Shown here piece by piece: positions 1 to 24,528 of a DNA stretch of 32,001 nt (position 1 is the first letter of the stretch; every line of letters starts with the position of its first letter). This DNA comes from Candidatus Limnocylindrales bacterium (GTDB taxonomy: Bacteria; Chloroflexota; Limnocylindria; Limnocylindrales; CSP1-4), in contig DAIOXD010000002.1 in assembly GCA_036758145.1 (NCBI GenBank), positions 1 through 32,001 on the forward strand, read 5' to 3'. The notes below the pieces were generated by a model, which saw only the letters and a program-made list of their open reading frames with translations, ran no database searches and had not been told where the DNA came from. Both the position numbers and the translations under genes were made by a program.

Positions 1-363
1 CGTGAGGTCGTCGGCGTAGGCCGCCGCCGTCAGCAGGAGCGCGTCGCCGTCCTCGGCGGGGAACCACAGCTTTGCGGCGACGTTGGCGACCGAGCCCTGG
101 GCGAGGGACGGCCGCCCGGACGGGAGTGGCCACTCGACGTGCGCGAGGAGGCCCGAGACAGGCAGCCAGGCGCCGACGAAGCCCGTCTCCGATTCGACGA
201 TGGCGTCGGGATCGTCGACCTCGACCCCTTCGGCGCCGATGGCGAAGGCGTCGTCGGGCGCGAAGCGCAGGACCGTCACCTCGTCGCCCTGCCAACGCGC
301 GGCGTCCAGCGCGACCGGATCGGCGACGACGCGAAGCCCGAGCAGTGGCTCAAGCGCGCGCAC
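1..363 (-). CDS. SoxG-like small subunit (sarcosine oxidase gamma / GcvT-fold family), first 121 codons only; 3' end lies beyond the window start
   Basis: Absent from the ORF track because it runs off the window. The minus-strand frame is open from 363 to 1. GTG at 363-361 is preceded by GGAGGG (376-371) and overlaps the upstream gene's stop (350-352) by 14 nt. Translation VRALEPLLGLRVVADPVALDAARWQGDEVTVLRFAPDDAFAIGAEG...RPSLAQGSVANVAAKLWF has normal composition. By memory it resembles SoxG N-termini, and its position after a SoxA-like gene fits. Confidence 0.4.
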   Translation of the reverse strand, partial: MRALEPLLGLRVVADPVALDAARWQGDEVTVLRFAPDDAFAIGAEGVEVDDPDAIVESETGFVGAWLPVSGLLAHVEWPLPSGRPSLAQGSVANVAAKLWFPAEDGDALLLTAAAYADDLT

Positions 364-5079: not shown

Positions 5080-5101
5080 GCAGCTCCCCTCGCTGGTCGG
5101 T

Positions 5102-6667: not shown

Positions 6668-6766
6668 GAGGCCTCCACTGGATGATGATTCGGACGCCAG
6701 GCTCGTCACCCGATGGCGCCCGACGACGACCGACCGAATGCTAGCCGGAAACGCCCGGAGTCGGCC

Positions 6767-8470: not shown

Positions 8471-8527
8471 GCGGTGCGGCCGGGCTCAGCGGTCCCTGGC
8501 CGAGCCGCTGGCGCCGAGCCGAACGGT

Positions 8528-8965
8528 TCAGGAATCCTCGTCATCGAGGGAGACGCGTCGCCGTCGGTTCGGGAGCGAGGTCTCCTCCTCCCACTCGCGA
8601 CCGGCGCGGACGAGGTCCCCGAACGTCCGGCGCGACCATCGATAGAGCAGGGTCATCGCGCCTTCGGCGGCAAGTTGCGTCTCGCGGCCGTAGCGGACGC
8701 CCATCCGGACGCCGTCCTGGATGCGGCTCTCGCCCTCGTCGAAGGCGTCCGATAGTCGTCGCTGCCGCAATCGGCGCGCGTAGTCGTCGCGCTCTTCGGT
8801 GGTCGGCCCGTTCAACCAGGCCTGCCGCCGCCGCTTCTCACGCTCGACCCACGCGTCGATCTCGGCCTGGGTCGGCTCGAGCGCGACGGGGTCGTCGCTC
8901 ATGGCGTCCATCGTGGCGTCCGCCGACGCCTTGTCCGCCGACGCCTTGCCCGCCGGATCAGTCAT
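8528..8965 (-). CDS. Hypothetical protein, 145 aa, charged and probably helical
   Basis: ORF 8528..9109 (-), trimmed to ATG 8965-8963, which is preceded by AGAGGTGG at 5-nt spacing. The composition is protein-like (MTDPAGKASADKASAD...EIDAWVEREKRRRQAWL...). I recognised no family. Confidence 0.5.
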   Translation of the reverse strand: MTDPAGKASADKASADATMDAMSDDPVALEPTQAEIDAWVEREKRRRQAWLNGPTTEERDDYARRLRQRRLSDAFDEGESRIQDGVRMGVRYGRETQLAAEGAMTLLYRWSRRTFGDLVRAGREWEEETSLPNRRRRVSLDDEDS

Positions 8966-9095
8966 GTCAACCACCTCTGGGCCCACTTGCAGACGGTGCG
9001 ACAAACCTGGGACGGGGAGTGTACGCCCCGCGACCGCGCCCGGGACATAGCCGGCGCGTCCGCGGGCCCCGGCCGGCCCGCGTGCGGGGCGCCGC

Positions 9096-9252
9096 TGACC
9101 CCGGGTCAACGATTCGGGCCCAAAGGTCCCCGGCGAGACCGCAAGACTCCGGTGTGGCGACCCAGGGTCAACAAGCCGCGAACTTCGGTGGGCCGATCCA
9201 CCCGTGGTATACCAACCGTCCTCGTGCCAAAAGTGTTGATCGCGGGGTCAAC
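9096..9252. promoter_or_regulatory. Three related palindromic sites, consensus TGACCC-N-GGGTCA, in one intergenic region
   Basis: Site 1 is tgaccccgggtca at 9096-9108, with 6-1-6 arms. Site 2 is gacccagggtc at 9159-9169, with 5-1-5 arms. Site 3 is a degenerate copy, gttgatcgcggggtcaac, at 9235-9252. All three share GGGTCAAC (9103-9110, 9165-9172, 9245-9252). GTCAAC also abuts the start codon at 8966-8971. Confidence 0.3.
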
Positions 9253-9283
9253 GCGTCAGCCGGTCCTCCCCGCGGTTCGTCGC

Positions 9284-10804
9284 TCAGTCGCCCGACAGGT
9301 CGAACCAGGTCGTCTTGAGCTGGGTGTAGCCGTCGAGGGCGTGGAGGCCCTTGTCGCGCCCGAAACCGGACTGCTTGTAGCCACCGAAGGGCACGGTGAT
9401 GTCGGCCGTGTCGAAGGTGTTGACCCAGACCACCCCGGCCCGGATCCGGCGCGAGAGCCGGTGCGCGCGATTGACATCGCGGGTCCACAGCCCGGCGGCC
9501 AGACCGTAGGGCGAATCGTTGGCGATGGCCACCGCCTCTTCCTCGTCCTCGAACTCGGTGACGGTCAGGACAGGGCCGAAGATCTCCTCGCGCGCGACCC
9601 TCATGGAGTTGGCCACGCCGTCAAGGATCGTCGGCTCGATGTAGTAGCCGCCACTCTCCCCGCGGACCTGCTCGCCGCCGGCGACGACCCGGGCGCCTTC
9701 CTCGCGACCGAGATCGACGTAGCCGAGGACCTTCGCCAGCTGGCGGTCGTCGACGATCGACCCGAGCCGGGTCCTGGGATCGAGCGGCTCGCCTGGAGCA
9801 AGCTTCCGACCGAGCGCCGCGACGCGCTCGACAAGCTCCTCGCGGACCGAGCGATGGACGACGAGGCGCGAGCCCGCGTTGCAGGTCTGCCCGCTGTTGT
9901 AGAAGATCCCCCAGCCGATCGCGGAAGCGGCCGCCTCGAGGTCGCCGACGTCCGCCAGCACGACCTGCGGGCTCTTGCCACCGAGCTCGAGCGAGATGGC
10001 CTTGACGTCGGACTCCCCGAGCGCGCGCAGGAGTGACTTGCCGACCTCCGTCGAGCCCGTGAAGGCGATCTTGTCGACGTCCGGGTGCCGGGCGAGCGCG
10101 TCGCCGAGGACCGAGCCCGGGCCGGTCACCACGTTGAGGACACCGTCGGGGAGTCCCGCCTCCGCGGCAAGCTCGGCGAGGCGGAGCGCCGTCAGTGGCG
10201 ACTGACTCGCGGGCTTGAGCACGACCGAGTTACCGGTCGCTAGCGCGGGCCCGATCTTCCAGGCCGTGATGATCATCGGGTAGTTCCAGGGCACGATCGC
10301 GGCGACCACCCCGATCGGCTCGCGGGTCACCAGGGAGAGGGCGTCGGGCCCGGTCGGCCCGACCTCGCCGTACGCCTTGTCGATCGTCTCGGCGTACCAC
10401 TGGAGGGTCGTGGCGGCACTCGGGATGTCGACTCGGAGCGTGTCGCGGATCGGCTTGCCGACATCGAGCGACTCGAGCAGCGCCAGCTCGTCGGTGTGCT
10501 CGCGGACGAGCTCCGCGAGCCGCAGCAGGACGGCCTTGCGTGCCATCGGCGGCTGGTCGCTCCAGCGGCGATCATCGAACGAGCGACGGGCGGCCGCGAC
10601 GGCGCGATCGACGTCCTCGGGGCCGCCCTCGGCGACGGCCGCGATCCGGGAGCCGTCGCGCCCGGCGATGTCGTCGAAGGTCGCCCCCGAGGCCGCCGGC
10701 ACGAAGCGGCCGTCGACGAACAGCTCGGTCCGGGGCGCGATCGACGCGGCGCGAGCGATCCAGTCGGCCGCGGTCGGCCCCGCGGGTTTCGTCTCAGCGC
10801 TCAC
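9284..10804 (-). CDS. NAD(P)-dependent aldehyde dehydrogenase, 506 aa
   Basis: ORF 9284..11626 (-) is a read-through artefact. The real start is GTG 10804-10802, which forms a GTGA overlap with the upstream stop 10801-10803 and has GGAGGT 7 nt upstream. ALDH motifs seen: VPWNYP, FTGSTEVGK, LELGGKSP (catalytic Glu), GQTCNAGSR (catalytic Cys) and EEIFGPV. Confidence 0.9.
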   Translation of the reverse strand: MSAETKPAGPTAADWIARAASIAPRTELFVDGRFVPAASGATFDDIAGRDGSRIAAVAEGGPEDVDRAVAAARRSFDDRRWSDQPPMARKAVLLRLAELVREHTDELALLESLDVGKPIRDTLRVDIPSAATTLQWYAETIDKAYGEVGPTGPDALSLVTREPIGVVAAIVPWNYPMIITAWKIGPALATGNSVVLKPASQSPLTALRLAELAAEAGLPDGVLNVVTGPGSVLGDALARHPDVDKIAFTGSTEVGKSLLRALGESDVKAISLELGGKSPQVVLADVGDLEAAASAIGWGIFYNSGQTCNAGSRLVVHRSVREELVERVAALGRKLAPGEPLDPRTRLGSIVDDRQLAKVLGYVDLGREEGARVVAGGEQVRGESGGYYIEPTILDGVANSMRVAREEIFGPVLTVTEFEDEEEAVAIANDSPYGLAAGLWTRDVNRAHRLSRRIRAGVVWVNTFDTADITVPFGGYKQSGFGRDKGLHALDGYTQLKTTWFDLSGD

Positions 10805-12096: not shown

Positions 12097-13809
12097 ATGG
12101 ACTATCCCCAGCTGGACAAGGTCCGCGGTTCGACAACGCCACTGCAGCTCGACACGGTCGAGGCGTTCGTCCGCGGCAAGTTGAGTCGTCGCGAATTCAT
12201 CGGGCGCGGCCTGGTGGTCGGGCTCTCGATGGCGTCGATCAGCGCCGTCATCGCCGCGTGCGGCGGCGGCACCTCAAGCACCGCGCCGAGCACCGGCGGC
12301 GGCGGCAGCACGGCTCCGACTTCAGGCGCCAGCACCCCGCCCGCCTCGGCGACCGCCGGAGGCACGATCCGGATCGCGCTCCAGCGCCCGGTCAAGGTCG
12401 ACCCCATCGCGATGCAGGACCTCGGCGGCTACGGCATCACCGCTCAGTCGTTCGAGTTCCTGTGCACGCTCGACAAGAACGGCAGCGACATCGCCCCTGG
12501 CCTCGCTCTCAAGTGGACGCCCAATGCCGACGGCAGCGTCTGGGTCTTCGACCTCCGTCAGGGCGTCATGTGGCAGGACGGCACCCCGTTCAGCTCGGCC
12601 GACGTGGTGGCCACGATGGAACGCCTCGTGGCGGCCGGCAACTCCGGCCTCAAGGGCGTCATCGACAAGGGCTCGGCGGTCGCGACCGATGCGAACACGG
12701 TCACCTTCAACCTCGTGAGCGCCAACGGCAACTTCCCATACCTCGTCTCGGTCTTCACCGCCCAGGCGCTCATCACCCCGGCCAACTACGCCGCCGGGAC
12801 GACGTTCGACGCGAAGCCGAACGGAACGGGCGCCTGGAAGCTGACCAGCTACGACGTCACACAGGGTGCCAAGTTCGCGCGGAACGACGCCTGGTGGGGC
12901 GGCAAGACCCCGCTCGACACGACGGAGTTCATCTTCTTCGATCAGACGTCGGACATGGTCACCGCCTATCAGGGCGGGCAGGTCGATGCGATCGTGCAGT
13001 TCGACGTCCTCTCGGGCAAGAGCCTGCTGGACGATGCGAACACGACGGTCATCGCGACCAAGGCCGCGCTCCACCGGCAGATCTGGATGCGCTGCGACAA
13101 GGGCCAGTTCGCGAAGAAGGAAGTCCGCCAGGCGCTGGCCTACACCTTCGACCGGCCGGCCCTGATCCAGCAGCTCTTCCAGGGACGGGCCGATCTCGGC
13201 AATGATCACGTCATCGCCCCGATCTACCCGTACTTCGACTCGTCGATCCCGCAGCGGGTGCAGGACATCGAGAAGGCCAAGTCGCTCCTGTCCACGGCCG
13301 GCGTGACCAACCTGTCGGCCACGCTCCACGCGGGCCAGCTCCTCGAGATCCCCGATCTCGCCGTGCTGCTCCAGAGCAACGCCGCGAAGGCCGGGATCAC
13401 CCTGACCCCGGCGGTCGAGAGCCTGACGACGTTCTACGGCGCGCAGTGGTGCCCCGACAAGCCGGCCGATCCCCCGTGCTCCGGCTCGGCCGAGCTCGGC
13501 ATCGTCGACTACGGCCACCGCGCGACCCCGGACGTCTACCTCAACGCGGCCATCAAGACCAAGGGCGTCTGGAACGCGTCGCAGTACTCGTCGCCCGAAT
13601 TCGATGCCGCCTTCACCGAGTTCCAGAAGGCGGTCGGTGTCGACGCCCAGAAGGCGGCCTGCACCAAGATCGAGACGATCATGAACGAGGACGTCCCGAT
13701 CGGCCTCCCGTACTTCTACAACTACCTCGCCGGCAGCGCCAAGGCGTACACCGGGATCTACTCGAGCGCGCTTGGCCAGATGTTCTTCTCCGCGGCTTCC
13801 AAGGCCTGA
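12097..13809 (+). CDS. ABC transporter substrate-binding protein, family 5 (peptide/nickel/opine type), Tat-signal lipoprotein
   Basis: ORF 10540..13809 (+), trimmed to ATG 12097, with GGAGGAG at 12081-12087. It has a twin-arginine motif and lipobox, LSRREFIGRGLVVGLSMASISAVIAACGGG, followed by a Ser/Thr/Pro/Gly linker. The mature domain is typical of SBP_bac_5 (LALKWTPNADGSVWVFDLRQGVMWQDGTPFSSADV). An alternative in-frame TTG start lies at 12181. Confidence 0.85.
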   Translation: MDYPQLDKVRGSTTPLQLDTVEAFVRGKLSRREFIGRGLVVGLSMASISAVIAACGGGTSSTAPSTGGGGSTAPTSGASTPPASATAGGTIRIALQRPVKVDPIAMQDLGGYGITAQSFEFLCTLDKNGSDIAPGLALKWTPNADGSVWVFDLRQGVMWQDGTPFSSADVVATMERLVAAGNSGLKGVIDKGSAVATDANTVTFNLVSANGNFPYLVSVFTAQALITPANYAAGTTFDAKPNGTGAWKLTSYDVTQGAKFARNDAWWGGKTPLDTTEFIFFDQTSDMVTAYQGGQVDAIVQFDVLSGKSLLDDANTTVIATKAALHRQIWMRCDKGQFAKKEVRQALAYTFDRPALIQQLFQGRADLGNDHVIAPIYPYFDSSIPQRVQDIEKAKSLLSTAGVTNLSATLHAGQLLEIPDLAVLLQSNAAKAGITLTPAVESLTTFYGAQWCPDKPADPPCSGSAELGIVDYGHRATPDVYLNAAIKTKGVWNASQYSSPEFDAAFTEFQKAVGVDAQKAACTKIETIMNEDVPIGLPYFYNYLAGSAKAYTGIYSSALGQMFFSAASKA

Positions 13810-13827
13810 CATCGCGGCGCGTGGGGT

Positions 13828-13866
13828 CGGCGGTTCGTCCCGTCGGCCCCGCGGCGCGAACCGTCG
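13828..13866 (+). other. Imperfect stem-loop between the SBP and permease genes
   Basis: cggcggttcg (13828-13837) pairs with cgaaccgtcg (13857-13866), giving 10 bp including one G-U pair and a 19-nt loop. No U-tract follows. The permease SD GGAGGG starts at 13871. Confidence 0.25.
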
Positions 13867-13887
13867 CCCAGGAGGGTGAAGTAGGCG

Positions 13888-14841
13888 ATGGCACGCTTCA
13901 TCCTGCGCCGGCTGCTCCTCTCGCTCGTCACGCTGTGGCTGCTGGCGACGATCGTCTTCATCATCTCCAACGTCCTGCCCAGCGATGTCGGGCGGACGAT
14001 CCTCGGGCCGTTCGCGCCCCAGGAAAGCGTCGACGCGGTGAACGAGCGGCTGGGGACCAACCGGCCGATCCTCATCCGCTACGTCGACTCGTTGCGCCAG
14101 ATCGTCACCCTCGACTTCGGCGATTCGTACGTCACCCAGCAGCCGGTCATGCCACAACTGGCCGGGGCCATCGGGCGCTCCGCAAAGCTCGCCGGCCTCG
14201 CGCTCATCATCACCATCCCGATCAGCATCATCGCCGGGCTGTACGCCGCTCGTCGACGTGACCGGAAGGTCGACCGCGCGATCGTCCTGCTGGGGGTGAC
14301 GTCCTCGTCGATCCCGGAGTTCGTCACCGGGACGATCCTGGTCGTCGTCGTGGGCGTCGCCCTGCGCTGGCTGCCAGTCCTCGCCACCCCGCCCGAGTCA
14401 GCCGACATCCCGACCACGATCCGCTACCTGCTGATGCCGGCCATCGCGATGGCCATCGTCTACTTCGGCTACATCGCCCGGATGACCCGCTCCGGCACGA
14501 TCGAGGTCCTCCAGTCGGACTACATCCGGACGGCGACGATGAAGGGCCTGACCACACGGGCGACGATGCTTCACCATGTCCTGCGCAACGCGCTCGTGCC
14601 GACGGTGGCCGTCATCGCCGTCCAGATCGGCTATCTCTTCGGCGGGATCATCGCCGTCGAGAAGATCTTCAACTACAACGGGATGGGCCAGACGATGCTG
14701 CGGGCCGCCCAGCAAAAGGACATCCCGATGCTCACCGCGGGCGCCATCGTCATCGGCATCGTGTACATGGTGGCGACCTTCATCGCAGACATGACGATGG
14801 CCTGGATGAACCCGCGGATCCGGCTGGACACCGATCGCTGA
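13888..14841 (+). CDS. ABC transporter permease (DppB/OppB-like)
   Basis: ORF 13888..14841 (+), with GGAGGGTG upstream. The N-terminus MARFILRRLLLSLVTLWLLATIVFII is typical. It has multiple TM segments and the conserved loop DYIRTATMKGL. Confidence 0.9.
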   Translation: MARFILRRLLLSLVTLWLLATIVFIISNVLPSDVGRTILGPFAPQESVDAVNERLGTNRPILIRYVDSLRQIVTLDFGDSYVTQQPVMPQLAGAIGRSAKLAGLALIITIPISIIAGLYAARRRDRKVDRAIVLLGVTSSSIPEFVTGTILVVVVGVALRWLPVLATPPESADIPTTIRYLLMPAIAMAIVYFGYIARMTRSGTIEVLQSDYIRTATMKGLTTRATMLHHVLRNALVPTVAVIAVQIGYLFGGIIAVEKIFNYNGMGQTMLRAAQQKDIPMLTAGAIVIGIVYMVATFIADMTMAWMNPRIRLDTDR

Positions 14842-15731
14842 TGGATACGGCCCTCAACCCCGCGCCCATCGTCCCGACCGTGACGCCGCTCCGCTCGGAG
14901 CGGAGCCAGGCTCGCCGCGAGACGGCCAGGCAGCTCCTCCGGCGGCCGGCCTTCATCATCGGCAACATCGTCATCATCGGCTGGATCATCTGTGCCGTGC
15001 TCGGCCAGCGGATCACGCCGTACGACCCGCTCAACGACTTCTCGCTCGGTCACCAGCCGCCCAGCGTCGACCACCTGATGGGCACCGACCGCATCGGCCG
15101 CGATGTCCTTTCGCGGGTGATGGTCGGCTCGCGGGACGTCCTGATCGTGGCGCCCCTGGCCGCACTGTTCGGCGTCGTCGCCGGGACCCTGCTGGGGCTG
15201 ATCATGGGCTACTACCGGGGCCTGGTCGACGACATCCTGAGCCGCCTGGTCGAGGCATTCCTCGCCCTTCCGGTGATCCTCATCGCGTTATTGACGCTGG
15301 TCGTGCTCGGGTCGTCGCCGCTCGTGGTGGTCTTCGTCGTCGGCATCCTGTTCACGCCTATCGTCGCGCGCACGGTGCGTTCGGCCGTCCTGACCGAGCG
15401 AAACCTCGACTACGTGACGGCCGCCAAGCTTCGCGGTGAGACCGGCTTCTTCATCCTGTCGCGCGAGATCTTCCCCAACGTCCTGGGCCCGACGGTGGTC
15501 GAGCTGACCGTCAGGTTCGGCTACGCGATCTTCACGGTCGCGACCCTGTCGTTCCTCGGCGTCGGCATCCAGCCGCCGTCGGCGGACTGGGGCCTGACGG
15601 TGAGCCAGGAGTACACGAACATGATCTCGGGCGTCTGGTGGCCGACGCTCTTCCCGGCCCTGGCGATCGCGAGCACGGTCGTCGCGGTCAACCTCATCGC
15701 GGATTCGCTCCAGTCGGTGCTCAACGAATGA
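14841..15731 (+). CDS. ABC transporter permease (DppC/OppC-like)
   Basis: ORF 14841..15731 (+). The start overlaps the upstream stop (TGATG). It has multiple TM segments and the conserved loop DYVTAAKLRGE. Confidence 0.9.
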   Translation: MDTALNPAPIVPTVTPLRSERSQARRETARQLLRRPAFIIGNIVIIGWIICAVLGQRITPYDPLNDFSLGHQPPSVDHLMGTDRIGRDVLSRVMVGSRDVLIVAPLAALFGVVAGTLLGLIMGYYRGLVDDILSRLVEAFLALPVILIALLTLVVLGSSPLVVVFVVGILFTPIVARTVRSAVLTERNLDYVTAAKLRGETGFFILSREIFPNVLGPTVVELTVRFGYAIFTVATLSFLGVGIQPPSADWGLTVSQEYTNMISGVWWPTLFPALAIASTVVAVNLIADSLQSVLNE

Positions 15732-17878
15732 CCGCCGGGTTCGAGCCCACGCCCGCTCCCGAGCCGAGGCGGGAGCCCGCGATGGCCGGCGGCGCGACCG
15801 CGGCCGCGACCGCTGCGCCCGCCGCGCCCGCCGCCGCCCTGCGCATCGAGGACCTGTCGCTCTCGTATATCGTGCGCGGCATCCCTCGTCCGGTCCTGCG
15901 CGGGGTCTCGTTCGAGGTCCGGCCGGGTGAGTCGTATGGGCTGGTCGGCGAGTCCGGCTGCGGCAAATCGACGACGGCCTACGCCGCGGTCCGCTACCTC
16001 CCCCGAAATGGCGTCATCACCGGCGGTCGCATCCTGGTCGATGGCAACGACGTGACGAAGATGTGCGAGGAAGAGGTCCGGAACTTCCGGATCCACCAGG
16101 CCTCGATGGTCTACCAGGACCCCGGCGCCGCGCTCAACCCCACGACGAAGGTCGGGCCACAAGTCGTCGAGGCGTTCACCATCCTCGGCCAGAACAAGAA
16201 GCAGGCCCAGGCGAACGCGCTCAAGGCGCTCAAGCGGGTCCAGATCGCCGACCCCGAGGCGGTCGCCCAGCGCTATCCCCACCAGCTTTCCGGAGGGATG
16301 CAGCAGCGCGTCGTCATCGCCATCGCCCTCGCCTCGGACCCGAAGCTGCTCGTGCTCGACGAACCGACCACCGGGCTGGATGCCACGGTCGAGGCGAGCG
16401 TCCTCGATCTCGTGCGGACGCTCCAGGCCGAGACGAACGCCGCGGTCCTGCTCATCGCCCACAACCTCGGCGTGATCCGGACGATCTGCGACCGGGTCGG
16501 CGTGATGTACGCAGGCAAGATCGTCGAGGAGGGCGACGCGGCGTCGGTCTTCGAGCATCCGGAACACCCGTACACGCTCGGGCTCCTGCGCTCGCTCCCG
16601 CGCCGCGGGGTCCGCAAGACCGAGCGCGCCCTCGCGACGATCCCCGGCAATCTGCCCCAGATCGGGACGCCGCTGCCGACCTGCGTCTTCGTCGATCGCT
16701 GTCCGCTGGCGGACGAGCTGTGCCGGACGGTCATCCCGCCGATCGTCGAGGTCGGACCAGGCCGCTGGACCCGCTGCCATCATCGCGATCGCCTCGGCCA
16801 GATCGTCGAGCCGCCGGCCGTCGTCGGCCAGGACACCGTCCACGGCGACCGGGCGCTCTCGATCGAGGAGGTCTCGAAGACCTTCCACCAGAGCGGGCAC
16901 GACGTGCCGGCCCTGGTCAAGGTCAACCTCGAGCTCTTCGACGGCGAGACGCTCGGGCTGGTCGGCGAGTCGGGCTCCGGGAAGTCGACCCTGGCGAAGA
17001 CGCTCCTTGGCATCGAGAGCCCGGATCCCGGCGGCAACCTCGAGCTCGACGAGCACGCCCTTGCAGCGCGGTCGGCCAACCGGCCGACGGACGACAAGCG
17101 CTCGCTCCAGATGGTCTTCCAGAACCCCGACTCGGCGCTCAACCGTGGCTGGACCGCGCGCCACATCCTGTCGCGCTCGGTGAGCAAGCTGACCGGGTTG
17201 AAGGGCAAGGCGGTCAATGAGCGGGTCGACAAGCTGGCGGCCGACCTGCGACTGACCCAGCGGCACCTAGACCTCAAGCCGCGACAGTTGTCGGGCGGGC
17301 TCAAGCAACGTGTGGCGATCGCGCGCGCGTTCGCCGGCGACCCACGGATCGTCGTGGCCGACGAGCCGACGAGCGCCCTGGACGTCTCGGTCCAGGCGGC
17401 GATCCTCAACCTGCTCTCCGAGCTCCAGATCAAGAACAAGACGAGCTACCTGCTGATCTCGCACGACCTGGGCGTCGTCCGCTACCTGGCCGACCGGATC
17501 GCCGTGCTGTATCTAGGGCGGATCATGGAGGTCGGCGATTCCGAGACCGTCTTCCGCGGGCCGAACCACCCGTACACCGAGGCGCTGCTCTCCGCGGTCC
17601 CGAACGTGGACGGCGAGGACCGCAAGCGGATCATCCTCGAGGGCGAGATCCCGAGCCCGGCCAATCCTCCGAGCGGCTGCGTCTTCAACACCCGCTGTCC
17701 GCGCGTCATCCGCGGCCTGTGCGAGGTGGTCGAGCCGCCGCTCGTCGAGGTCGAACCCGGCCACCAGATGAGCTGCCACATCCCGATCGAGGAGCTGCGC
17801 GTCCTCCAGCGCAAGGCGCCGCCACCTCGCGAGGACGTGCCGCCGGAACTCGCCGATCCGGCCCTGCTGGCCGACTGA
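15728..17878 (+). CDS. Fused double ATP-binding protein of the peptide/opine-type ABC importer (DppD-DppF-like fusion), 716 aa
   Basis: ATG 15728 forms an ATGA overlap with the permease stop. There are two complete nucleotide-binding domains. The first has GESGCGKST, LSGGMQQR and LLVLDEPTTGLD. The second has GESGSGKST, LSGGLKQR and IVVADEPTSALD. Each is followed by an oligo_HPY-type Cys-rich tail: CVFVDRCPLADELCRTV...RCH and CVFNTRCPRVIRGLCEVV...SCH. Confidence 0.9.
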   Translation: MTAGFEPTPAPEPRREPAMAGGATAAATAAPAAPAAALRIEDLSLSYIVRGIPRPVLRGVSFEVRPGESYGLVGESGCGKSTTAYAAVRYLPRNGVITGGRILVDGNDVTKMCEEEVRNFRIHQASMVYQDPGAALNPTTKVGPQVVEAFTILGQNKKQAQANALKALKRVQIADPEAVAQRYPHQLSGGMQQRVVIAIALASDPKLLVLDEPTTGLDATVEASVLDLVRTLQAETNAAVLLIAHNLGVIRTICDRVGVMYAGKIVEEGDAASVFEHPEHPYTLGLLRSLPRRGVRKTERALATIPGNLPQIGTPLPTCVFVDRCPLADELCRTVIPPIVEVGPGRWTRCHHRDRLGQIVEPPAVVGQDTVHGDRALSIEEVSKTFHQSGHDVPALVKVNLELFDGETLGLVGESGSGKSTLAKTLLGIESPDPGGNLELDEHALAARSANRPTDDKRSLQMVFQNPDSALNRGWTARHILSRSVSKLTGLKGKAVNERVDKLAADLRLTQRHLDLKPRQLSGGLKQRVAIARAFAGDPRIVVADEPTSALDVSVQAAILNLLSELQIKNKTSYLLISHDLGVVRYLADRIAVLYLGRIMEVGDSETVFRGPNHPYTEALLSAVPNVDGEDRKRIILEGEIPSPANPPSGCVFNTRCPRVIRGLCEVVEPPLVEVEPGHQMSCHIPIEELRVLQRKAPPPREDVPPELADPALLAD

Positions 17879-17945: not shown

Positions 17946-18087
17946 CCGATCAGACCCGATATCAGGCTGGCTGATCAGATTCGCCGTTTCTGAGCGTGGC
18001 GACCCCGCCCTTCTGTCGATTGTGGAGTTCCGCCCAGCGTGCAAAGCGTCGATTTGATCAATGAGGCTGATATCGGTCTCCGATCAG
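17946..18087. repeat. MITE-like element: imperfect terminal inverted repeats flanked by 8-bp direct repeats
   Basis: The direct repeat ccgatcag occurs at 17946-17953 and 18080-18087. Immediately inside lie the inverted arms acccgatatcaggct (17954-17968) and aggctgatatcggtct (18064-18079). Their cores are perfectly complementary over 10 bp: ccgatatcag at 17956-17965 and ctgatatcgg at 18067-18076. The interior also holds the palindromes ctgatcag (17971-17978) and ttgatcaa. Confidence 0.35.
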
Positions 18088-18141
18088 GGCCTCCAAACCC
18101 CAGCTCGATGCATCGCACCCCAGCCGAGCCCGCCGGTTGCA

Positions 18142-18623
18142 CTACGACGTGGTGCGTTCCTGGTTCAGGACGGCCGCCAGATCGATCACGAGGTCGGTGA
18201 AGAGCGGAGGCGGGGAACCGTCGCTGCAGCGAAGGACGACATGTTCTGGGTCGAGCACATCGACGACCACGCCTGTGTCACCGATCCATGCCTGCATGGT
18301 GCCGGCCGCGTCACGCCACGCGTTCCAGATCCTCACGGTCATCTCTTTGCCCGGCGTGGTCGGAGCAAGTTCGATTCTCTCCCGTTCGGGCGAGTTGTCG
18401 GACCAAATCACCAGGTCGTCGAGAAGCTGATCATTAGCTTGAGTCGGCCGCCTCGTGATCGCAGTCTTAGCCCTTGAGGCCGTCGCTCGGATGCGAAGAT
18501 CCGCGTGAGTTGCATTGCCGTCGCCGCCACGGGCCATTCGTACATCGCGTGGATGATCTGACCGTCAGGGTCGATGGGGCGCCCTTTGGAGGCCAGGAAC
18601 CGGTCAGACAATCGCCGATTCAC
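18142..18623 (-). pseudogene. Hypothetical gene apparently split by a single frameshift
   Basis: Two overlapping minus-strand ORFs, 18408..18623 and 18142..18537. GC3 is coding-like only in the 5' part of the first (VNRRLSDRFLASKGRPIDPDGQIIHAMYEWPVAATAMQLTRIFASERRPQG). It is also coding-like in the 3' part of the second (...QLLDDLVIWSDNSPERERIELAPTTPGKEMTVRIWNAWRDAAGTMQAWIGDTGVVVDVLDPEHVVLRCSDG...). The implied frame switch is near 18440-18475. The family is unknown. Confidence 0.3.
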
Positions 18624-18645: not shown

Positions 18646-20697
18646 TCATAGCGTCATCGCAATGCGGCGGGCGTCGTAGATGGCGGCATGGATCGATCGG
18701 CTGGCGACGGCGTCGCCGACGCGGAAGAGCTGGTAGGTGCCGTCGGGGTTGACGACCCGGGCCTGAGGCTGGCCGGCGAGATAGGCGCCCAGGTCGAGTT
18801 CGCCGCCATTCGAGGAGCCGTCGCGCAACGCCAGGTAGACCTCGGCGTTCGGGACCGTGCCGTACTCGATCACGACCTGGTCGACGACGCGCTGGGTCGT
18901 GGTTCGCGTGTAGTCGTTCCAGAGGTCGACCTCGAGACGGCGGTCAAGCCTTCGGCGAACCGCGGTCAGCCGGTGATCTGGGGTCAAACGGACACCGGCC
19001 GCATAGAACGACCCGAGATACGCCGGGTAGGCGGTCCCGGTCACCTCCTGGCCGACGTGGCGATCGGGCGTGACGAGCTCCACCGATGAACCGGCGGCGA
19101 CCATCCGCTCGACACACGAAAGCGCGTCCTCGGTGCCGTGGTCGTCGAAGACCAGGACTTCGCCACGTGACGGGCTGACCGACCCGCCGACGATGTCCCA
19201 GGTGCTCACCACGAGGTCCTCGCCCTCGGTCAGTACGGGCATCCGGGGCCGCCCACCGGTCGCGACGATCACCACGTCCGGCGCCAAACCCACCACATCC
19301 GCCGCCTCGGCCACATGGTTGCGCCGCACCTCCACGCCCATGTGCCGGCACTCCCCCGCCAGCCACTCCACGATCCCGATCAGGTCGCCCCGCCGCGCCG
19401 TCGCCCGCGCCGCCAGCCGGATCTGGCCGCCGACCTCTGGCGCCGCCTCGAACAGCGTGACCGAGTGCCCCCGCTCCGCCGCGACCCGAGCCGCCTCCAG
19501 CCCCGCCGGGCCGCCGCCGACCACCACGACCTTCCGGCGCGGCCCCCTCGAGCGCGGCGTCACGTGCGCGATCGTCTCCTCGCGCCCGGTCGCGGGGTTG
19601 TGGATGCACAACGCGTCGAGTCCCTGGTAAAGCCGGTTGATGCACATCGACGCCCCGACGCACGGCCGGATCCGGTCGGCCTCGCCCGCTTCCAGCTTGC
19701 GCACGATGTGCGGGTCGGCCATGTGCGCCCGCGTCATCCCGACCATGTCGAGGAGACCCTCGGTGATCGCGTAGCGTGCCGTCGCCACGTCGGCGATCCG
19801 GGCCGCATGGAAGATCGGCAGGTTCACCCGTTCGCGAAATCGCCCGGCGAACTGGAGGGCGGGCCCGAACGGCGTGCCCATCCCCGGGATGACGTGCGAG
19901 ATCGCCTCGTCGGTGGCGATCGAGCCCTTGACGATGTTGATGAAGTCGATCGTCCCGGTCCGGGCCAGGGTCGATGCGATCTCGAGGCCGTCGGCCTCGT
20001 TCAGCCCGCCCGGGACGTCCTCGCCGCCGGTCATCCGGATCCCGACGATGAAGTCGGGGCCGACCTTCGCCCGGATGGCCTCGAGCACCTCGATCGAGAA
20101 GCGCATCCGGTTGGCGAGCGACCCGCCGTAGCGATCCGACCGTTTGTTGACGAGCGGCGACCAGAACTGGTCGATCAGGTGGCCGTAGGCCTCGAGCTCC
20201 AGGCCGTCGAGGCCGCCTTCCCGACACCGACGCGCCGCCTCGGCGTAGGAGGCGACGACTCGCCGGATATCGCCCTCTTCCATCTCCTTCGGGAACGACC
20301 GATGCGCCGGCTCACGGACCGACGACGACGAGATGGTCGGCAGCCAGTCGCCGTCGTCCCAGACCGTCCGCCGGCCGAGGTGGGTGAGCTGGACCATGGT
20401 CGCGGCGCCGTGCGCGTGCATCCGGTCGGCCATCTGCCGGAACCACGGGATGATGTCGTCGTTGCCGGCGTAGAGCTGGCCGAAGATCGGCGGCGAGTCG
20501 GGTGCGACGTTCGTCGATCCACCGAACATCGACAGCGCGATCCCGCCCTTGGCCTTCTCCTCCTGGTAGAGCTGGTAGCGCAGCTTCGGCTTGCCATCCT
20601 CCGCATAAGCCGGTTCGTGGGCCGTGCTCATGATCCGGTTCCGGAGCGTCAGGTGCCGGAGCTGGAACGGCTGGAGGAGCGGGTCGGCGGCGGTCAT
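18646..20697 (-). CDS. OYE-like FMN / FAD-NAD(P) flavoprotein of the 2,4-dienoyl-CoA reductase / N-methylproline demethylase (StcD-like) family, 683 aa
   Basis: ORF 18646..20745 (-, TTG). I prefer ATG 20697, which gives the N-terminus MTAADPLLQPFQLRHLTLRNRIMSTAHEP. The protein has an Oxidored_FMN barrel (QLTHLGRR, RYGGSLANRMRF). Its Cys motif is reduced to three Cys: CVGASMCINRLYQGLDALC. A Rossmann motif VVVVGGGPAGLEAARVAAERGH follows. Confidence 0.85.
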   Translation of the reverse strand: MTAADPLLQPFQLRHLTLRNRIMSTAHEPAYAEDGKPKLRYQLYQEEKAKGGIALSMFGGSTNVAPDSPPIFGQLYAGNDDIIPWFRQMADRMHAHGAATMVQLTHLGRRTVWDDGDWLPTISSSSVREPAHRSFPKEMEEGDIRRVVASYAEAARRCREGGLDGLELEAYGHLIDQFWSPLVNKRSDRYGGSLANRMRFSIEVLEAIRAKVGPDFIVGIRMTGGEDVPGGLNEADGLEIASTLARTGTIDFINIVKGSIATDEAISHVIPGMGTPFGPALQFAGRFRERVNLPIFHAARIADVATARYAITEGLLDMVGMTRAHMADPHIVRKLEAGEADRIRPCVGASMCINRLYQGLDALCIHNPATGREETIAHVTPRSRGPRRKVVVVGGGPAGLEAARVAAERGHSVTLFEAAPEVGGQIRLAARATARRGDLIGIVEWLAGECRHMGVEVRRNHVAEAADVVGLAPDVVIVATGGRPRMPVLTEGEDLVVSTWDIVGGSVSPSRGEVLVFDDHGTEDALSCVERMVAAGSSVELVTPDRHVGQEVTGTAYPAYLGSFYAAGVRLTPDHRLTAVRRRLDRRLEVDLWNDYTRTTTQRVVDQVVIEYGTVPNAEVYLALRDGSSNGGELDLGAYLAGQPQARVVNPDGTYQLFRVGDAVASRSIHAAIYDARRIAMTL

Positions 20698-20787
20698 CTC
20701 GGGCGTGGCGCCTCGGGGCCTGGCAGTCCCGACTGGACCATCCAAGGTCCTCCAAGGCGGGCCCGATCACACGCTCGCCACGGCTCC

Positions 20788-20802
20788 GTGCCTGATAGGC
20801 AC
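20788..20802. promoter_or_regulatory. Perfect 6-3-6 palindrome GTGCCTgatAGGCAC in the leader of the flavoprotein gene
   Basis: Read directly from the sequence. It lies about 90 nt upstream of ATG 20697 in the 227-nt gap after the MttB paralog 2 stop. Confidence 0.3.
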
Positions 20803-20924
20803 CCAACAGAGCGGAGTGGCATTCGTGGCCGCCTCTCGAGCCGCCAGTGGCGCCTACCAGTCCCCGCCACGACGCCGCCGAGGGCCACGATGGAACCGGC
20901 CCGCATCGCCCAGCCCACGCGGAC

Positions 20925-22472
20925 CTAGACGTCCGAATCCGGGAAGCTCGCCCTGCGCCGATCCAGCCATTCCATCAGCTCGTCGTGGATCGCCTCGTCG
21001 AGGGGCGGCATCTCGTACTCGGCCAGGCGGCGCTTCCAGCGCACGTTCGCCCGCTGGGCGGCGTCGAGCCCGCCGTCGAGCTGCCATTGCTCGAAGCTGT
21101 CGTTGTTGGAGATCTCGGACCGCCAGAACGCGTCCTCGAAGTTCGCCAGCGTGTGGGGCGACCCGAGGAAATGCTGGCCCGGCCCGCCGGCGAGCATGGC
21201 GTCGAGCGCGAAGCCGTTGTCGGTCACGTCGACGCCGCCGATGTAGGCGCCGGTCATCGACGCCTGATCTTCGTCGAGGATGAATTTCTCGTAGCCGATG
21301 GCCAGCCCGCCCTCGAGCCAACCCGCGGTGTGGAGATTGAAGTTGACGCCGGCCTGCATCGTGGCGAGATAGCTGATCGCGCTCTCGTAGGCGGCCTGGT
21401 AGTCGGGCAGCTTGGACGCCGTGAAGTTGCCCCCGCTCCGGAACGGGACGCCGAGCCGGCGAGCGAGGGCAGCGAGGACGAACAGCACAAGTTGGGGTTC
21501 CGGGGTGCCGAAGGTGGGCGCTCCGGACTGCATCGACATCGACGAAGCGAACGAGCCGAAGATGACCGGCGCGCCCGGCTTGACGATCTGGCAGAATGCC
21601 ATCCCCGCCAGCGCCTCGGCAAGCGTCTGGGTGGCCTGCGCCGCGACCGTCACGGGCGCCATGGCGCCACCGAGGATGAACGGCGTGATGAGCATGATCT
21701 GGTTGTTCTCGGCGTAGACCTTGGCCGAGCCGAGCATGTTGAAGTCCCACGACATCGGCGAGTTGGCGTTGGCCAGGCCCATGATCACGTGCTCGCGTTC
21801 CATCGTCTCGGCACCGAACACGATCCGCGCCATCTCGACGGAATCCTGGGCGCGGCTCGGGTGGGTCACCGAACCCATGAACGCCCGGTCCGAGTAGCGG
21901 ATGTGGCTGTAGACCATCTCGAGATGGCGCTTGTTGACGGGGAGGTCGACCGGCTCGCACAACGTCCCGCCGCCGTGGTGGAGGGTGCGGCTCGTGTAGG
22001 TCAGCTTCACGAAGTTACGGAAGTCCTCGATGGTGGCGTAGCGACGGCCCTCGTCGAGGTTGTGGATGAACGGCGAGCCATAGGTCGGCACCAGGACCAT
22101 GTACGGGTCGCCGATCTGGACGCTCCGGGCGTCGTTGCGGGCGCGCTGGGTGAAGATCTTGGGCGCGGTGGCCGTGACGAGCGCCCGGCACATGCCACGC
22201 GGGAAGCGGACGCGGGTGCCCGTCACGTCCGCGCCGGCGCCGCGGAAGATCTCGACCGCATCGGGGAAGTTGACGATCTCGATCCCGACCTGCTCGAGGA
22301 GGGTGTCGGCGTTGGCCTCGATCTGCTCGAGCCCGCCGGTCGAGATGACCTCGACGGGTGGCAGCTTGCGGGTCAGATACGGGAGCGTGTCCATCGTCCG
22401 AGCCAGGCGCTCGCTCTGTCGCGCGGCCCGACCGCGCCGTACGGCGGGGTGTTCGAGGTCCGGGACAGCCAT
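20925..22472 (-). CDS. Trimethylamine methyltransferase (MttB) family protein, non-pyrrolysine class (paralog 2), 515 aa
   Basis: ORF 20925..22586 (-), trimmed to ATG 22472, with GAGGAG 5 nt upstream. There is no in-frame TAG. The MttB core is ITPFILGGAMAPVT, KPGAPVIFGSF, MQSGAPTFGTPE and TAGWLEGGL. By eye it is roughly half identical to paralog 1. Confidence 0.9.
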   Translation of the reverse strand: MAVPDLEHPAVRRGRAARQSERLARTMDTLPYLTRKLPPVEVISTGGLEQIEANADTLLEQVGIEIVNFPDAVEIFRGAGADVTGTRVRFPRGMCRALVTATAPKIFTQRARNDARSVQIGDPYMVLVPTYGSPFIHNLDEGRRYATIEDFRNFVKLTYTSRTLHHGGGTLCEPVDLPVNKRHLEMVYSHIRYSDRAFMGSVTHPSRAQDSVEMARIVFGAETMEREHVIMGLANANSPMSWDFNMLGSAKVYAENNQIMLITPFILGGAMAPVTVAAQATQTLAEALAGMAFCQIVKPGAPVIFGSFASSMSMQSGAPTFGTPEPQLVLFVLAALARRLGVPFRSGGNFTASKLPDYQAAYESAISYLATMQAGVNFNLHTAGWLEGGLAIGYEKFILDEDQASMTGAYIGGVDVTDNGFALDAMLAGGPGQHFLGSPHTLANFEDAFWRSEISNNDSFEQWQLDGGLDAAQRANVRWKRRLAEYEMPPLDEAIHDELMEWLDRRRASFPDSDV

Positions 22473-22536
22473 CTGATCTCCTCGGGTTCGCGCGACCTGG
22501 AGGCGCCGTGCCAGGGACATGGTACGGCGGCGCGAA

Positions 22537-24528
22537 TCAGAGGCGGCGCGCCAGTTCCCTTCCCTCGTAGAAGGCGAGGCTCGCACGGCGGGGAGCGACG
22601 GCGTCGCCGATCTGATGGAAGGCGATGCCGCGGGCGGTGAGCGCGGCGCCGAGGGCCGTTTCGGCGACCGGGGTCTCGGCGATGACGAGGGTGTCTGCGT
22701 GGATCTCGGCGGATTCGCCGGTCAGCGTGGACCGGACCGTGGCGATGCCCCTGTCCCACGCGAGGACGCTCGAGGATGTGATCGAGCGGCCGCCGGCCGC
22801 CGCAAACCGCTTGCGCAACGGCCCGTCGGCCGCGCTGTGGAAGAGGCCGGCGGCGACGACCGCGGCCCCGGTCAGGATCGTCACGTCGTGGCCGGTCTCG
22901 GCGAGCTGGACGGCCGTTCCAAGCCCGCGCCAGTCGTTGAGGTCATCGAGGACGAGGACGCGCCCGCCCGCGGTGGCCATGCCGTCCAGCACGTCGTGGA
23001 TCGCGACGACATCAGCGCCGTCCACCCCGGGGAGCCGATCGACCATCGGCAGCGCCCGCTGGAACCCGGCCCGGGCCGGACGGGACCCGGTCGCGACGAC
23101 CACCTCGTCCGCGCCGGCGGCCGCGACATCCTCGGCCTCAGCCTCGACCCACAGCCGCACGTCCACCCCGAGCGTCTCGAGCCGTCGCCCGAACCAGCCC
23201 AGCAGGTCCGTGATCTGGCCCCGCGACGGCTGGAGCCCGGCGAGCCGGAACTGGCCGCCGAGGACCGGCCCACGCTCGAGGAGCGTCACCTGGTGACCGC
23301 GCTCCGCCGCGACCCTGGCCGCCTCCAGCCCGGCGGGCCCGCCGCCCACCACCAGGACGAACCGCGGCACCGTGGCCGGCTCGAACCGGTCGCCGCCCCA
23401 TTCCCACTCACGCCCGGCCGACGGGTTGACGAGGCACGAGATCCAGTAGTCGCGCGACCGCCGGCCCCAGCACAGCTGGTTGCACGAGATGCACGGCCGA
23501 ACGTCGTCGGCGCGCCCCGCCCGGGCCTTCGCGACCAGGTGCGGATCGGCGATCTGGCCGCGCACGATGCTGACCATGTCGGCGTGGCCCGCCGCCAGCA
23601 CGGCCTCGGCCGCGGCCGGCGTCCGGATGTGGCTCTCGGCCTGGACCTTCGCGTTCCGGACGACCGCCTTGAGCGCCGCGGCGAACGGCTCCCCGAGTCG
23701 CTGCTCGAGCAGCGACGTCGGGATGATCGCCTCGAAATCGAAATAGGAGCCCGTCCCGCACGTGACGTAGTCCATCAGCCGCCGCTCGTCGTGCCAGGCG
23801 ATGATCTCGGCGAGCTCCGCGATCGACGGGAACGCGTCGGACGCCGGATCCGCACTGATCGCGAGCCCGATGATGAAGTCCTCGCCACATCGCTCGCGGA
23901 TCCGGCCGAGGATCTCGGACGAGAAGCGCATCCGGTTCTCGAAGGTACCGCCCCACTCGTCCGTTCGCCGGTTCGACCAGGGCGCCCAGAACTGGTCGAC
24001 GACGGCGTGGTAGGCGGCGAAGATCTCCACCCCGTCGAACCCGCTCGCCTGGGCGCGCGCCGCGGCCGCGACGAAGCCTTCGATGAGTTCCTCGACCTCG
24101 TCGGGCGCCATCGCATGGCTGCCGTCGGCGTCGTGGTAGGACGGCAGCCCCGAAGGCGACCAGTTGGGCGCGAACGAGTTGTCGGCGTCGCCGTGCTGGC
24201 CGACGTGATAGAGCTGGTGGATCATCACGATCTCGGGGCTCGCCTCTCGGCAGGCGTCGGTGACTGCCCGGAAGGCGGGGATGATCGCGTCGTCGTCATG
24301 GCGGAAGTTGCCGCGGGTCAGGACGCCGGTCCGGTGGATCGGCACCGGCTCGACCACGATCATCGCCGCCCCACCGAGCGCCCGTTCACGGTAGTAGCCG
24401 ATGTGCCGCGCGCCAGGCAGCCCGTCCTCGGCCATGTTCGCGGTGTGCGCCCCGAAGACGATCCGGCTGGTCAGCGTCTTGTGGCGGAGCTGGAGCGGCT
24501 CGAAGACGTGCGGGAAGTCGGCCGCCAC
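22537..24528 (-). CDS. OYE-like FMN / 4Fe-4S / FAD-NAD(P) flavoprotein (2,4-dienoyl-CoA reductase / amine demethylase family), 663 aa
   Basis: ORF 22537..25512 (-) is a read-through artefact. No ATG lies upstream of the conserved N-terminus, so I set the start at GTG 24528-24526 (VAADFPHVFEPLQLRHKTLTSRIVFGAH), 2 nt after the upstream stop. Motifs seen: EWGGTFENRMRF, a four-Cys motif CISCNQLCWGRRSRDYWISC, and the Rossmann motif VLVVGGGPAGLEAARVAAERGH. Confidence 0.85.
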   Translation of the reverse strand: MAADFPHVFEPLQLRHKTLTSRIVFGAHTANMAEDGLPGARHIGYYRERALGGAAMIVVEPVPIHRTGVLTRGNFRHDDDAIIPAFRAVTDACREASPEIVMIHQLYHVGQHGDADNSFAPNWSPSGLPSYHDADGSHAMAPDEVEELIEGFVAAAARAQASGFDGVEIFAAYHAVVDQFWAPWSNRRTDEWGGTFENRMRFSSEILGRIRERCGEDFIIGLAISADPASDAFPSIAELAEIIAWHDERRLMDYVTCGTGSYFDFEAIIPTSLLEQRLGEPFAAALKAVVRNAKVQAESHIRTPAAAEAVLAAGHADMVSIVRGQIADPHLVAKARAGRADDVRPCISCNQLCWGRRSRDYWISCLVNPSAGREWEWGGDRFEPATVPRFVLVVGGGPAGLEAARVAAERGHQVTLLERGPVLGGQFRLAGLQPSRGQITDLLGWFGRRLETLGVDVRLWVEAEAEDVAAAGADEVVVATGSRPARAGFQRALPMVDRLPGVDGADVVAIHDVLDGMATAGGRVLVLDDLNDWRGLGTAVQLAETGHDVTILTGAAVVAAGLFHSAADGPLRKRFAAAGGRSITSSSVLAWDRGIATVRSTLTGESAEIHADTLVIAETPVAETALGAALTARGIAFHQIGDAVAPRRASLAFYEGRELARRL

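Follow-up and report, generated by a model that had tools for sequence, protein, structure and literature searches.

Gene layout of the locus

The first 32,001 nucleotides (nt) of contig DAIOXD010000002.1, from the Candidatus Limnocylindrales bacterium assembly GCA_036758145.1 (a soil member of the Chloroflexota), were analysed, and this whole stretch is called the window below. The genes under study lie on its minus strand in the order FlavB, MttB2 and FlavA, that is, an MttB-family methyltransferase gene between the genes of two flavoproteins. A preliminary description of the locus had been made from the letters of the DNA, and reading of the minus strand bore out its coordinates, its gene order and its gaps of 64 nt and 227 nt (Table 1). 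All three genes are intact with zero internal stops, and the G+C content of the window is about 70%. Pfam assigned MttB2 to PF06253 (MTTB) over model positions 2-500 of 500 (E 1.9e-205), and FlavA and FlavB each to Oxidored_FMN plus Pyr_redox_2. The two flavoproteins are 32.4% identical by alignment, in accordance with the earlier estimate of about 30%.

No terminator-like site was found between the three genes, where the promoter and terminator scan was also empty. The Rfam scan of the whole window returned zero matches, so no cobalamin, glycine or tetrahydrofolate (THF) riboswitch was detected in it, the 227-nt spacer before FlavA included. The sequence of this spacer is confined to this strain; it is not a repeat and is not kept in other loci. 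It was predicted to fold strongly (-121 kcal/mol, a figure with no shuffled-control comparison behind it).

The arrangement of the three genes exceeds chance: related genomes and other phyla have it as well. The recurrence of the trio in unrelated bacteria also makes a role in betaine demethylation probable, and the trio probably strips methyl groups from betaine osmolytes. It is part of a larger island of methylated-amine catabolism, which is laid out with the other features of the window in Table 1.

Table 1. Position of the three-gene set and of the other annotated features in the window (aa, amino acids; ORF, open reading frame)
Feature	Coordinates	Strand	Basis and remarks
FlavB	24528 to 22537	minus	start GTG 24528, stop TGA ending 22537; 663 aa
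MttB2	22472 to 20925	minus	start ATG 22472, stop TAG ending 20925; 515 aa
FlavA	20697 to 18646	minus	start ATG 20697, stop TGA ending 18646; 683 aa
FlavB-MttB2 spacer	22473..22536	minus	64 nt; contains GAGGAG ribosome-binding site of MttB2
MttB2-FlavA spacer	20698..20924	minus	227 nt; unusually long for an MttB2-FlavA pair
Opp-like ABC importer	12150..17878	plus	Pfam; convergent with MttB2 operon, between the two minus-strand operons
SBP_bac_5 binding protein of importer	about 12150-13809, start uncertain	plus	Pfam
Importer permeases	13888-14841 and 14841-15731	plus	Pfam
Importer fused double ATPase	ORF 15638-17878	plus	Pfam
Second demethylation operon	350..10780	minus	Pfam and NCBIfam
Aldehyde dehydrogenase	9284 to about 10780	minus	first transcribed in second operon
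ABC1/UbiB-type atypical kinase	6767-8470	minus	between aldehyde dehydrogenase and MttB1
MttB1	5102-6709	minus	second MttB paralogue
DAO+GCV_T dimethylglycine-dehydrogenase-like protein	2611 to about 5100	minus	
Fer2_4+GCV_T SoxA-like protein	350-2674	minus	774 aa
Family-2 glycosyltransferase	25586-26356	minus	Pfam; upstream of FlavB
LPG_synthase_TM protein	24531 to about 25590	minus	Pfam; stop codon 2 nt before FlavB start
Two overlapping opposite-strand ORFs	18061-18537	both	138 and 131 aa; one called as gene in public contig

Clade and pocket of MttB2

MttB2 belongs to the non-pyrrolysine MttB superfamily, as it has a full-length MTTB match and no in-frame amber codon. Its nearest relatives, with identities of up to 98%, were found in metagenome-assembled genomes labelled Chloroflexota or Candidatus Limnocylindrales. 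The best solved relative was PDB 4YYC (607 bits), which is the product of the S. meliloti MtgB gene adjoining MtgC; the neighbours of that gene encode a cobalamin-binding protein, DUF1638, a methyl-THF:cobalamin methyltransferase, MetF and an ASKHA activase. The trees of this work were neighbour-joining trees of few taxa, in which MttB2 and its Limnocylindrales orthologues joined actinobacterial proteins (71-78% identical) at 100%, and this group joined the proteobacterial MtgB clade (S. meliloti/4YYC, Paracoccus, Azoarcus) at 94%. MttB2 is thus placed with the aerobic MtgB clade that is linked to MtgC and MtgD, and MttB1, 39% identical to it, falls outside. The Azoarcus member of the clade adjoins betA, betB, folD and a choline-binding protein gene. 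The specificity assigned to the aerobic MtgB clade comes from proteomics and gene context rather than from enzyme assays.

The binding pocket was compared with that of D. hafniense MtgB, whose glycine betaine ligands are Y97, R312 and H348 (PMC13080624). Residues Y131, R345 and H381 of MttB2 align with Y97, which forms the cation-pi contact, and with R312 and H348, which are the carboxylate ligands. The position of MtgB F356 is occupied by Gly in MttB2, and likewise in 4YYC and all MtgC-linked members, with which MttB2 also shares the nearly identical motifs PTYGSPF, RLGVPFRSGG and HTAGWLEGGL. The last of these is replaced by HSAGF(L/V)DGLL in the rhizobial MttB clade of HpbA operons. Proline betaine is barely used by D. 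hafniense MtgB (PMC13080624). The phylogenetic position and the pocket of MttB2 suggest that it is a glycine betaine methyltransferase.

Assignment of the two flavoproteins

FlavA has full-length identities of 53-55% to proteins of alphaproteobacteria, and for some of these the NCBI name is HpbA, N-methyl-L-proline demethylase. It grouped with HpbA-like proteins (Paracoccus HpbA-named proteins and rhizobial homologues) at 100% bootstrap with DgcA excluded, and it branches below all alphaproteobacterial members of this clade. The sister of the FlavA/HpbA clade is DgcA (44.8% identity to FlavA), and the next group out is trimethylamine dehydrogenase (TMADH). The N-terminus DPLLQPFQLRHLTLRNRI and the motif RPCVGASMC...C were confirmed in the sequence. 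FlavA and seven homologues carry STAHEPAY, EAYGHL and R-P-C-V-G-A-x2-C...C, and FlavA also has the domain architecture of HpbA/StcD. Its earlier description as StcD-type is therefore upheld by the clade, by about 54% identity to HpbA-named proteins and by the common motifs. DgcA has only the three-cysteine motif of this set, its equivalents of the other two being STAHAEVY and AAHQH. The CVGA..C motif on which the StcD-type assignment had partly been based is thus present in FlavA, but it marks the wider clade of DgcA plus HpbA and not StcD alone. The iron-sulphur (Fe-S) motif of FlavA has three cysteines, the second being replaced by Ala (C-x2-A-x3-C...C), as in all HpbA/DgcA homologues examined. 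HpbA is genetically required for growth of P. denitrificans on N-methylproline (PMC3950512). FlavA is predicted to be a flavoprotein of the HpbA/StcD clade with flavin mononucleotide (FMN) and an Fe-S cluster, acting as an N-methyl amino acid demethylase.

FlavB is 56-59% identical to rhizobial proteins annotated just as 'FAD-dependent oxidoreductase', where FAD is flavin adenine dinucleotide, and together with proteins of rhizobia and roseobacters it makes up a clade of its own (100% bootstrap). Its Fe-S motif has all four cysteines in the canonical form C-x2-C-x3-C...C, and its own signatures are FGAHTANMA, AAYH and CWGRRSRDYWISC. FlavB belongs to an uncharacterised sister clade of FMN/4Fe-4S/FAD-type flavoproteins and is likely an N-methyl or cyclic amine dehydrogenase.

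Two identities within the wider family were examined. At the positions of TMADH Cys30, Tyr60, Trp264 and Trp355, FlavA has E, G, A and L and FlavB has T, P, a gap and R, so that FlavB carries Thr in place of Cys30 and neither protein has these TMADH residues. DgcA identity was ruled out by identities of 44.8% for FlavA and 33.8% for FlavB to Ralstonia DgcA and by their separate placement in the tree; the reference was the Ralstonia gene of a glyA-dgcA-dgcB-etf-gbcA-gbcB cluster. No homologue of electron-transfer flavoprotein (ETF) was found in the window, and no DgcB-like protein was seen among its Pfam-scanned ORFs, DgcB itself not having been a query.

Conservation in Limnocylindrales-type loci

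The genome scan gave 80 loci, 71 of them of Limnocylindrales type, and the fractions below refer to evaluable loci; many of the related genomes are long-read assemblies with frameshifts. FlavB lies directly upstream of MttB2 in 44 of 61 loci, with a median gap of 51 nt, and FlavA directly downstream in 18 of 63 (29%). Of 19 related loci, 17 have a gap of 6-46 nt between MttB2 and FlavA, which makes the 227 nt of the window exceptional. Both flavoproteins were present in 16/55 loci, FlavB only in 25/55 and FlavA only in 2/55. FlavB is the most faithful neighbour of MttB2. The Opp-like importer adjoins MttB2 in convergent orientation in 62 of 62 loci. Where FlavB is the only flavoprotein, MiaA and HflX are found upstream, and FlavB-MttB2 is a free-standing pair before the ABC operon.

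The actinobacterial MttB2 orthologues were found in loci with the order MtgC-DUF1638-MtgD-RACo-MttB in nine of nine cases (L067, L070, L075, L076, L078, L079, L081, L082, L084). The MtgC of these loci is 73-76% identical to the MtgC of Paracoccus and S. meliloti. Eight of the nine have MTHFR next. Six were seen to have a divergent DAO+GCV_T gene and five to have ETF genes, the remaining contigs ending on that side. A transfer of the whole Mtg system between phyla is suggested.

Recurrence outside Limnocylindrales

The linkage was also found in other bacteria. Shinella sp. PSBB067 has a LysR gene beside an MttB gene that is followed by an HpbA-like gene, with a gap of 18 nt. S. fredii NGR234 has a LysR gene beside an MttB gene that is convergent with a FlavB orthologue. 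In another three S. fredii records, hit coordinates show MttB and FlavB as adjacent genes; two more carry the same MttB, with FlavB coordinates not among the matches listed. The Shinella and S. fredii MttBs are 85% identical to each other; they form a clade of their own, apart from MttB2, and differ from it in the pocket motif. The FlavB orthologue on pNGR234b of NGR234 (L091, 13706-15668) aligns in two pieces that meet at 14713/14715, and it may carry a frameshift or be a pseudogene. Other S. fredii strains gave a single full-length FlavB match.

A metagenome scan with an alignment of the FlavB clade yielded 59 loci outside Limnocylindrales. Beside FlavB, an MttB-family gene was found in 11 of the 59, an HpbA-like gene in 9 and an OCD or Ldh_2 gene in 21. 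The OCD and Ldh_2 families include cyclic imine reductases. MttB, HpbA, FlavB and OCD genes run in one direction in four metagenome loci (L153, L154, L157, L168), and a Pfam check on L157 confirmed all four genes plus a divergent LysR gene, the OCD gene encoding an OCD/mu-crystallin protein. The MttBs adjoining FlavB span at least three subfamilies, relatives of MttB1 included. Two further loci (L145, L151) are variants with Rieske oxygenase genes or a DAO+GCV_T gene.

In Rhizobiaceae and a roseobacter, FlavA-type and FlavB-type genes are paired in clusters with ProU transporters, which variously add ETF, formaldehyde detoxification genes and a gene of the proline racemase family. In Shinella zoogloeoides, a Rieske demethylase takes the place of MttB beside both flavoprotein types. 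This rhizobial exchange fits the idea of MttB replacing an oxygenase. The earlier proposal that MttB provides an oxygen-independent first step in aerobes had already been published in 2025 for glycine betaine (PMC12478193). Taken together, the neighbourhood counts support a functional link of MttB genes with both flavoprotein types, and the linkage, for which such statistics had been proposed, proved to be conserved and independently recurrent in Limnocylindrales, S. fredii, Shinella and metagenomic operons.

Annotation of the plasmid collection was incomplete. On a plasmid of Rhodobacter sp. CZR27 (L096), the neighbours of an MttB of the rhizobial clade are a Rieske oxygenase, the reductase of this oxygenase and a ProX/ProU transporter, and here the cobalamin-dependent and oxygen-dependent betaine demethylases are possibly alternatives for different oxygen levels. 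An 878-aa fusion of MTTB and Oxidored_FMN (P0075) was rejected as an artefact, with many frameshifted stretches from an error-prone assembly.

Proposed function and competing explanations

FlavB-MttB2-FlavA is read here as a co-inherited catabolic set, presumably co-transcribed, for the stepwise N-demethylation of an imported amino-acid betaine, and this reading of the sequences is put forward with middling confidence. The betaine would enter by import, and MttB2, judging from its family, would remove one methyl group from the quaternary nitrogen without oxygen. The methyl group would be handed to a cob(I)alamin protein whose gene lies at another site of the genome, and THF would be the next acceptor. 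The tertiary N-methyl amino acid so formed would then be oxidised at an N-C bond by FlavA and FlavB, as suggested by their clades and gene linkage. In this order of steps FlavA would take off the N-methyl group as formaldehyde, and FlavB would act on the same or the next intermediate. The oxidation would release formaldehyde or form an imine, and the electrons may go to ETF or another acceptor.

With regard to the substrate, the clade and pocket motif of MttB2 favour glycine betaine, which would give dimethylglycine and is, on a modest balance of probability, the compound used. A cyclic compound of the proline betaine type is favoured by the place of FlavA in the HpbA clade, by the proline-related partners of FlavB and by the importer relatives in proline-betaine-type clusters; it is a doubtful candidate for MttB2, and any other substrate is improbable. 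Dimethylglycine and N-methylproline are both tertiary N-methyl alpha-amino acids, and a basal enzyme of the HpbA clade might plausibly accept either of them.

Several observations weigh against a single pathway of the three genes. The clade of MttB2 points to glycine betaine and that of FlavA to N-methylproline, which is no evident match of the two halves; proline betaine had been offered earlier as an example of a betaine that MttB2 could demethylate, and the MtgB clade and pocket make glycine betaine at least as likely. Neither flavoprotein was found in 12 of 55 Limnocylindrales-type loci, which makes them dispensable neighbours, and the nine actinobacterial MttB2 orthologues (71-78%) have no flavoprotein neighbours, a DAO+GCV_T dehydrogenase adjoining instead. 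The 227-nt spacer could carry a promoter of FlavA's own. A tblastn search of the window with MtgC, MtgD and RACo as queries was negative for corrinoid proteins, methyl-THF methyltransferases and activases, and so was the search within 10 kb of MttB2 in every Limnocylindrales-type locus. The window holds no B12-binding protein, pterin-binding methyltransferase, RACo/RamA activase or ETF, and no ETF, formaldehyde-detoxification, OCD or Ldh_2 gene stands next to its flavoproteins. The best 120 matches to an MtgC query for the Limnocylindrales partner were all at least 84% identical, and none of these lay on an MttB2-bearing contig; the few of them with a taxon name belonged to Acidimicrobiia or Actinobacteria.

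The main competing explanation is that the three genes are neighbours that share no pathway. MttB2 would then be an MtgB whose dimethylglycine goes to the DAO+GCV_T and SoxA-like enzymes 15 kb away, and FlavA and FlavB would form a separate N-methylproline-type route, fed by MttB1 or by imports and inserted at a variable spot. The position of MttB2 within the MtgB clade with a common pocket motif, the pairing of its actinobacterial orthologues with a DAO+GCV_T enzyme and ETF and not with flavoproteins, the variable presence of flavoproteins among loci and the occurrence of DAO+GCV_T and GCV_T proteins in the window itself are all in accordance with this explanation. So is a Mesorhizobium cluster in which an MttB1 relative (58%) and an importer binding-protein orthologue occur with Ldh_2, Rieske and 2-oxoglutarate (2OG) oxygenase genes. 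It is nevertheless considered unlikely, as FlavB-MttB2 is a two-gene unit standing alone in many loci, the intergenic gaps are short, and the trio has been built with other MttB subfamilies in other phyla, in some cases as single operons, which is hard to explain without functional coupling. Another explanation keeps the pathway and changes its substrate: MttB2 would convert proline betaine (stachydrine) to N-methylproline, FlavA would convert this to proline, and FlavB would act on some other substrate. The HpbA clade of FlavA speaks for it, as do importer relatives clustered with HpbD-like racemases, Rieske demethylases and Ldh_2 genes, and rhizobial clusters in which ProU-type transporters and proline-related enzymes accompany the two flavoproteins. 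For S. meliloti, a proline betaine transporter of Opp type, Prb, is also reported, as cited in bioRxiv 10.64898/2026.09.15.751800. The motifs HTAGWLEGGL and RLGVPFRSGG of MttB2, however, are identical to those of MtgC/MtgD-linked and betAB-linked members and unlike the HSAGF(L/V)DGLL of the rhizobial clade. The poor use of proline betaine by the D. hafniense enzyme, mentioned above, argues in the same direction, and the commoner partner of MttB2 is FlavB and not FlavA. This explanation is accordingly no more than tentative.

A role of FlavA and FlavB outside amine metabolism was also considered, namely that of NAD(P)H-dependent ene-reductases of the 2,4-dienoyl-CoA reductase, BaiCD or mycofactocin-OYE type. 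Their top PDB sequence matches are indeed FadH and 2-naphthoyl-CoA reductase, and the top NCBIfam model is mycofactocin FadH/OYE oxidoreductase 2; the scores of 511 and 547 bits, however, are under its curated cut-off of 793. The proton-donor tyrosine (FadH Tyr166, OYE1 Tyr196) is absent from both, being His in FlavA and Ala in FlavB. These two results make such a role very improbable. FlavA moreover clusters with DgcA and TMADH rather than with FadH, and the flavoproteins are found throughout in the company of genes for betaine transport, MttB, ETF and formaldehyde detoxification.

Beyond the proposed demethylation set of the window, a broader role of FlavB can be suggested as a speculation. 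FlavB-type proteins might be a new class of amine dehydrogenase, acting as the dedicated downstream partner of MttB-family methyltransferases across phyla and in at least three subfamilies. Often joined by an HpbA-type demethylase and an OCD/Ldh_2 imine reductase, they would then belong to an undescribed hybrid cobalamin/flavin route of complete betaine degradation with an oxygen-independent start, which is an equally hesitant suggestion.

Comparison with known systems

Aerobic demethylation of glycine betaine by MtgBCD was described by Mausz et al. 2025, PNAS (PMC12478193), who raised the possibility that further MttB paralogues have other methylated compounds as substrates. MttB2 resembles this system in its clade (55-62% identity, 94% bootstrap), its Tyr/Arg/His ligands and the motif GWLEGGL, and the organism looks aerobic. 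Unlike in that system, no MtgC, MtgD, DUF1638, RACo or MetF gene is near MttB2, and two flavoproteins and the Opp-like importer are found instead. The anaerobic enzymes MtgB, MtpB, MtcB, MtyB and MthB of Eubacterium limosum and D. hafniense belong to the same superfamily, with presumed methyl transfer to Co(I), and MttB2 is about 40% identical to D. hafniense MtgB; those systems, however, have their own corrinoid proteins alongside and no further demethylation by flavoproteins.

FlavA shares domain architecture, clade and motifs with HpbA/StcD (Kumar et al. 2014, mBio, PMC3950512). In the HpbA/StcD pathway the prior demethylation is carried out by a Rieske oxygenase (HpbB/HpbC, Stc2), whereas here an MttB-family gene stands in that place, and ETF and formaldehyde-detoxification genes are absent from the window. 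DgcA, known from the gbcAB-dgcAB-etf genes of Pseudomonas and Ralstonia, forms the sister clade of FlavA with a common three-cysteine motif, and its substrate is what demethylation of glycine betaine by an MtgB-type enzyme would yield. Unlike DgcA, FlavA has no adjoining DgcB or ETF genes, and FlavB is merely 34% identical to DgcA. TMADH, dimethylamine and histamine dehydrogenases (2TMD, 1DJN, 3K30) have the same three-domain fold with FMN, Fe-S and ADP/FAD-binding parts, and enzymes of this type oxidise a C-N bond and release an aldehyde. They are about 30% identical to FlavA and FlavB, which differ from TMADH by lacking Cys30, the site of covalent 6-S-cysteinyl FMN, and the aromatic bowl of Tyr60, Trp264 and Trp355.

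An MttB-type first step in aerobes is thus already published for glycine betaine, HpbA and DgcA are also known, and what is new is the combination, together with a testable context for the FlavB clade and for orphan MttBs. Within the library searched, no article was found to name MttB alongside any of HpbA, N-methylproline demethylase and dimethylglycine demethylase/DgcA. To our knowledge, thousands of non-pyrrolysine MttB homologues of aerobic soil and marine bacteria have no known substrate, and a tie to physiology has been made for the glycine betaine route alone, not before 2025. The conserved link of MttB with HpbA-type and FlavB-type genes offers a testable pathway context for several orphan MttB subfamilies, and a true partnership with FlavB would give substrate assignments for several orphan MttB paralogues of aerobic bacteria. 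If the proposed demethylation set is real, nitrogen and methyl groups of soil betaines would be released by a mixed pathway with a cobalamin-dependent, oxygen-indifferent first step and flavin-dependent later steps. The inference of methylated-amine turnover and vitamin B12 demand from metagenomes of abundant uncultured Chloroflexota would then change.

Other features of the window

Orthologues of the importer binding protein, at 36-40% identity, were found in three kinds of neighbourhood: with a Rieske demethylase and an HpbA-like gene, with two mandelate-racemase-family genes and Ldh_2, and with an MttB1-like gene. The mandelate racemase family is that of the betaine epimerase HpbD. Inference of the ligand from binding-protein structures was dropped, since the closest solved structures are too distant. 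The two overlapping ORFs between the importer and FlavA have no Pfam match and were seen among related loci only in the same-strain contig L004; they were rejected as genes and are probably non-coding.

The short distance of 2 nt from the LPG_synthase_TM stop codon to the FlavB start suggests that transcription may read through from the envelope genes into the catabolic genes. The glycosyltransferase and LPG_synthase_TM genes were not counted in the module, because they are kept upstream only in the closest clade, MiaA/HflX being found there elsewhere.

In the second demethylation operon, the SoxA-like protein has Fer2_4, a BFD-like [2Fe-2S] domain, a SoxA A3 domain and GCV_T, with no obvious FAD domain. 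Several related loci have the aldehyde dehydrogenase and MttB1 genes after the ABC operon. Among plasmid-borne relatives, the one nearest to MttB1 (58%) is that of Mesorhizobium (L099), where SBP_bac_5 is present together with the Ldh_2, 2OG oxygenase and Rieske genes. The ABC1 kinase gene occupies the same place in some related loci (L017, L041).

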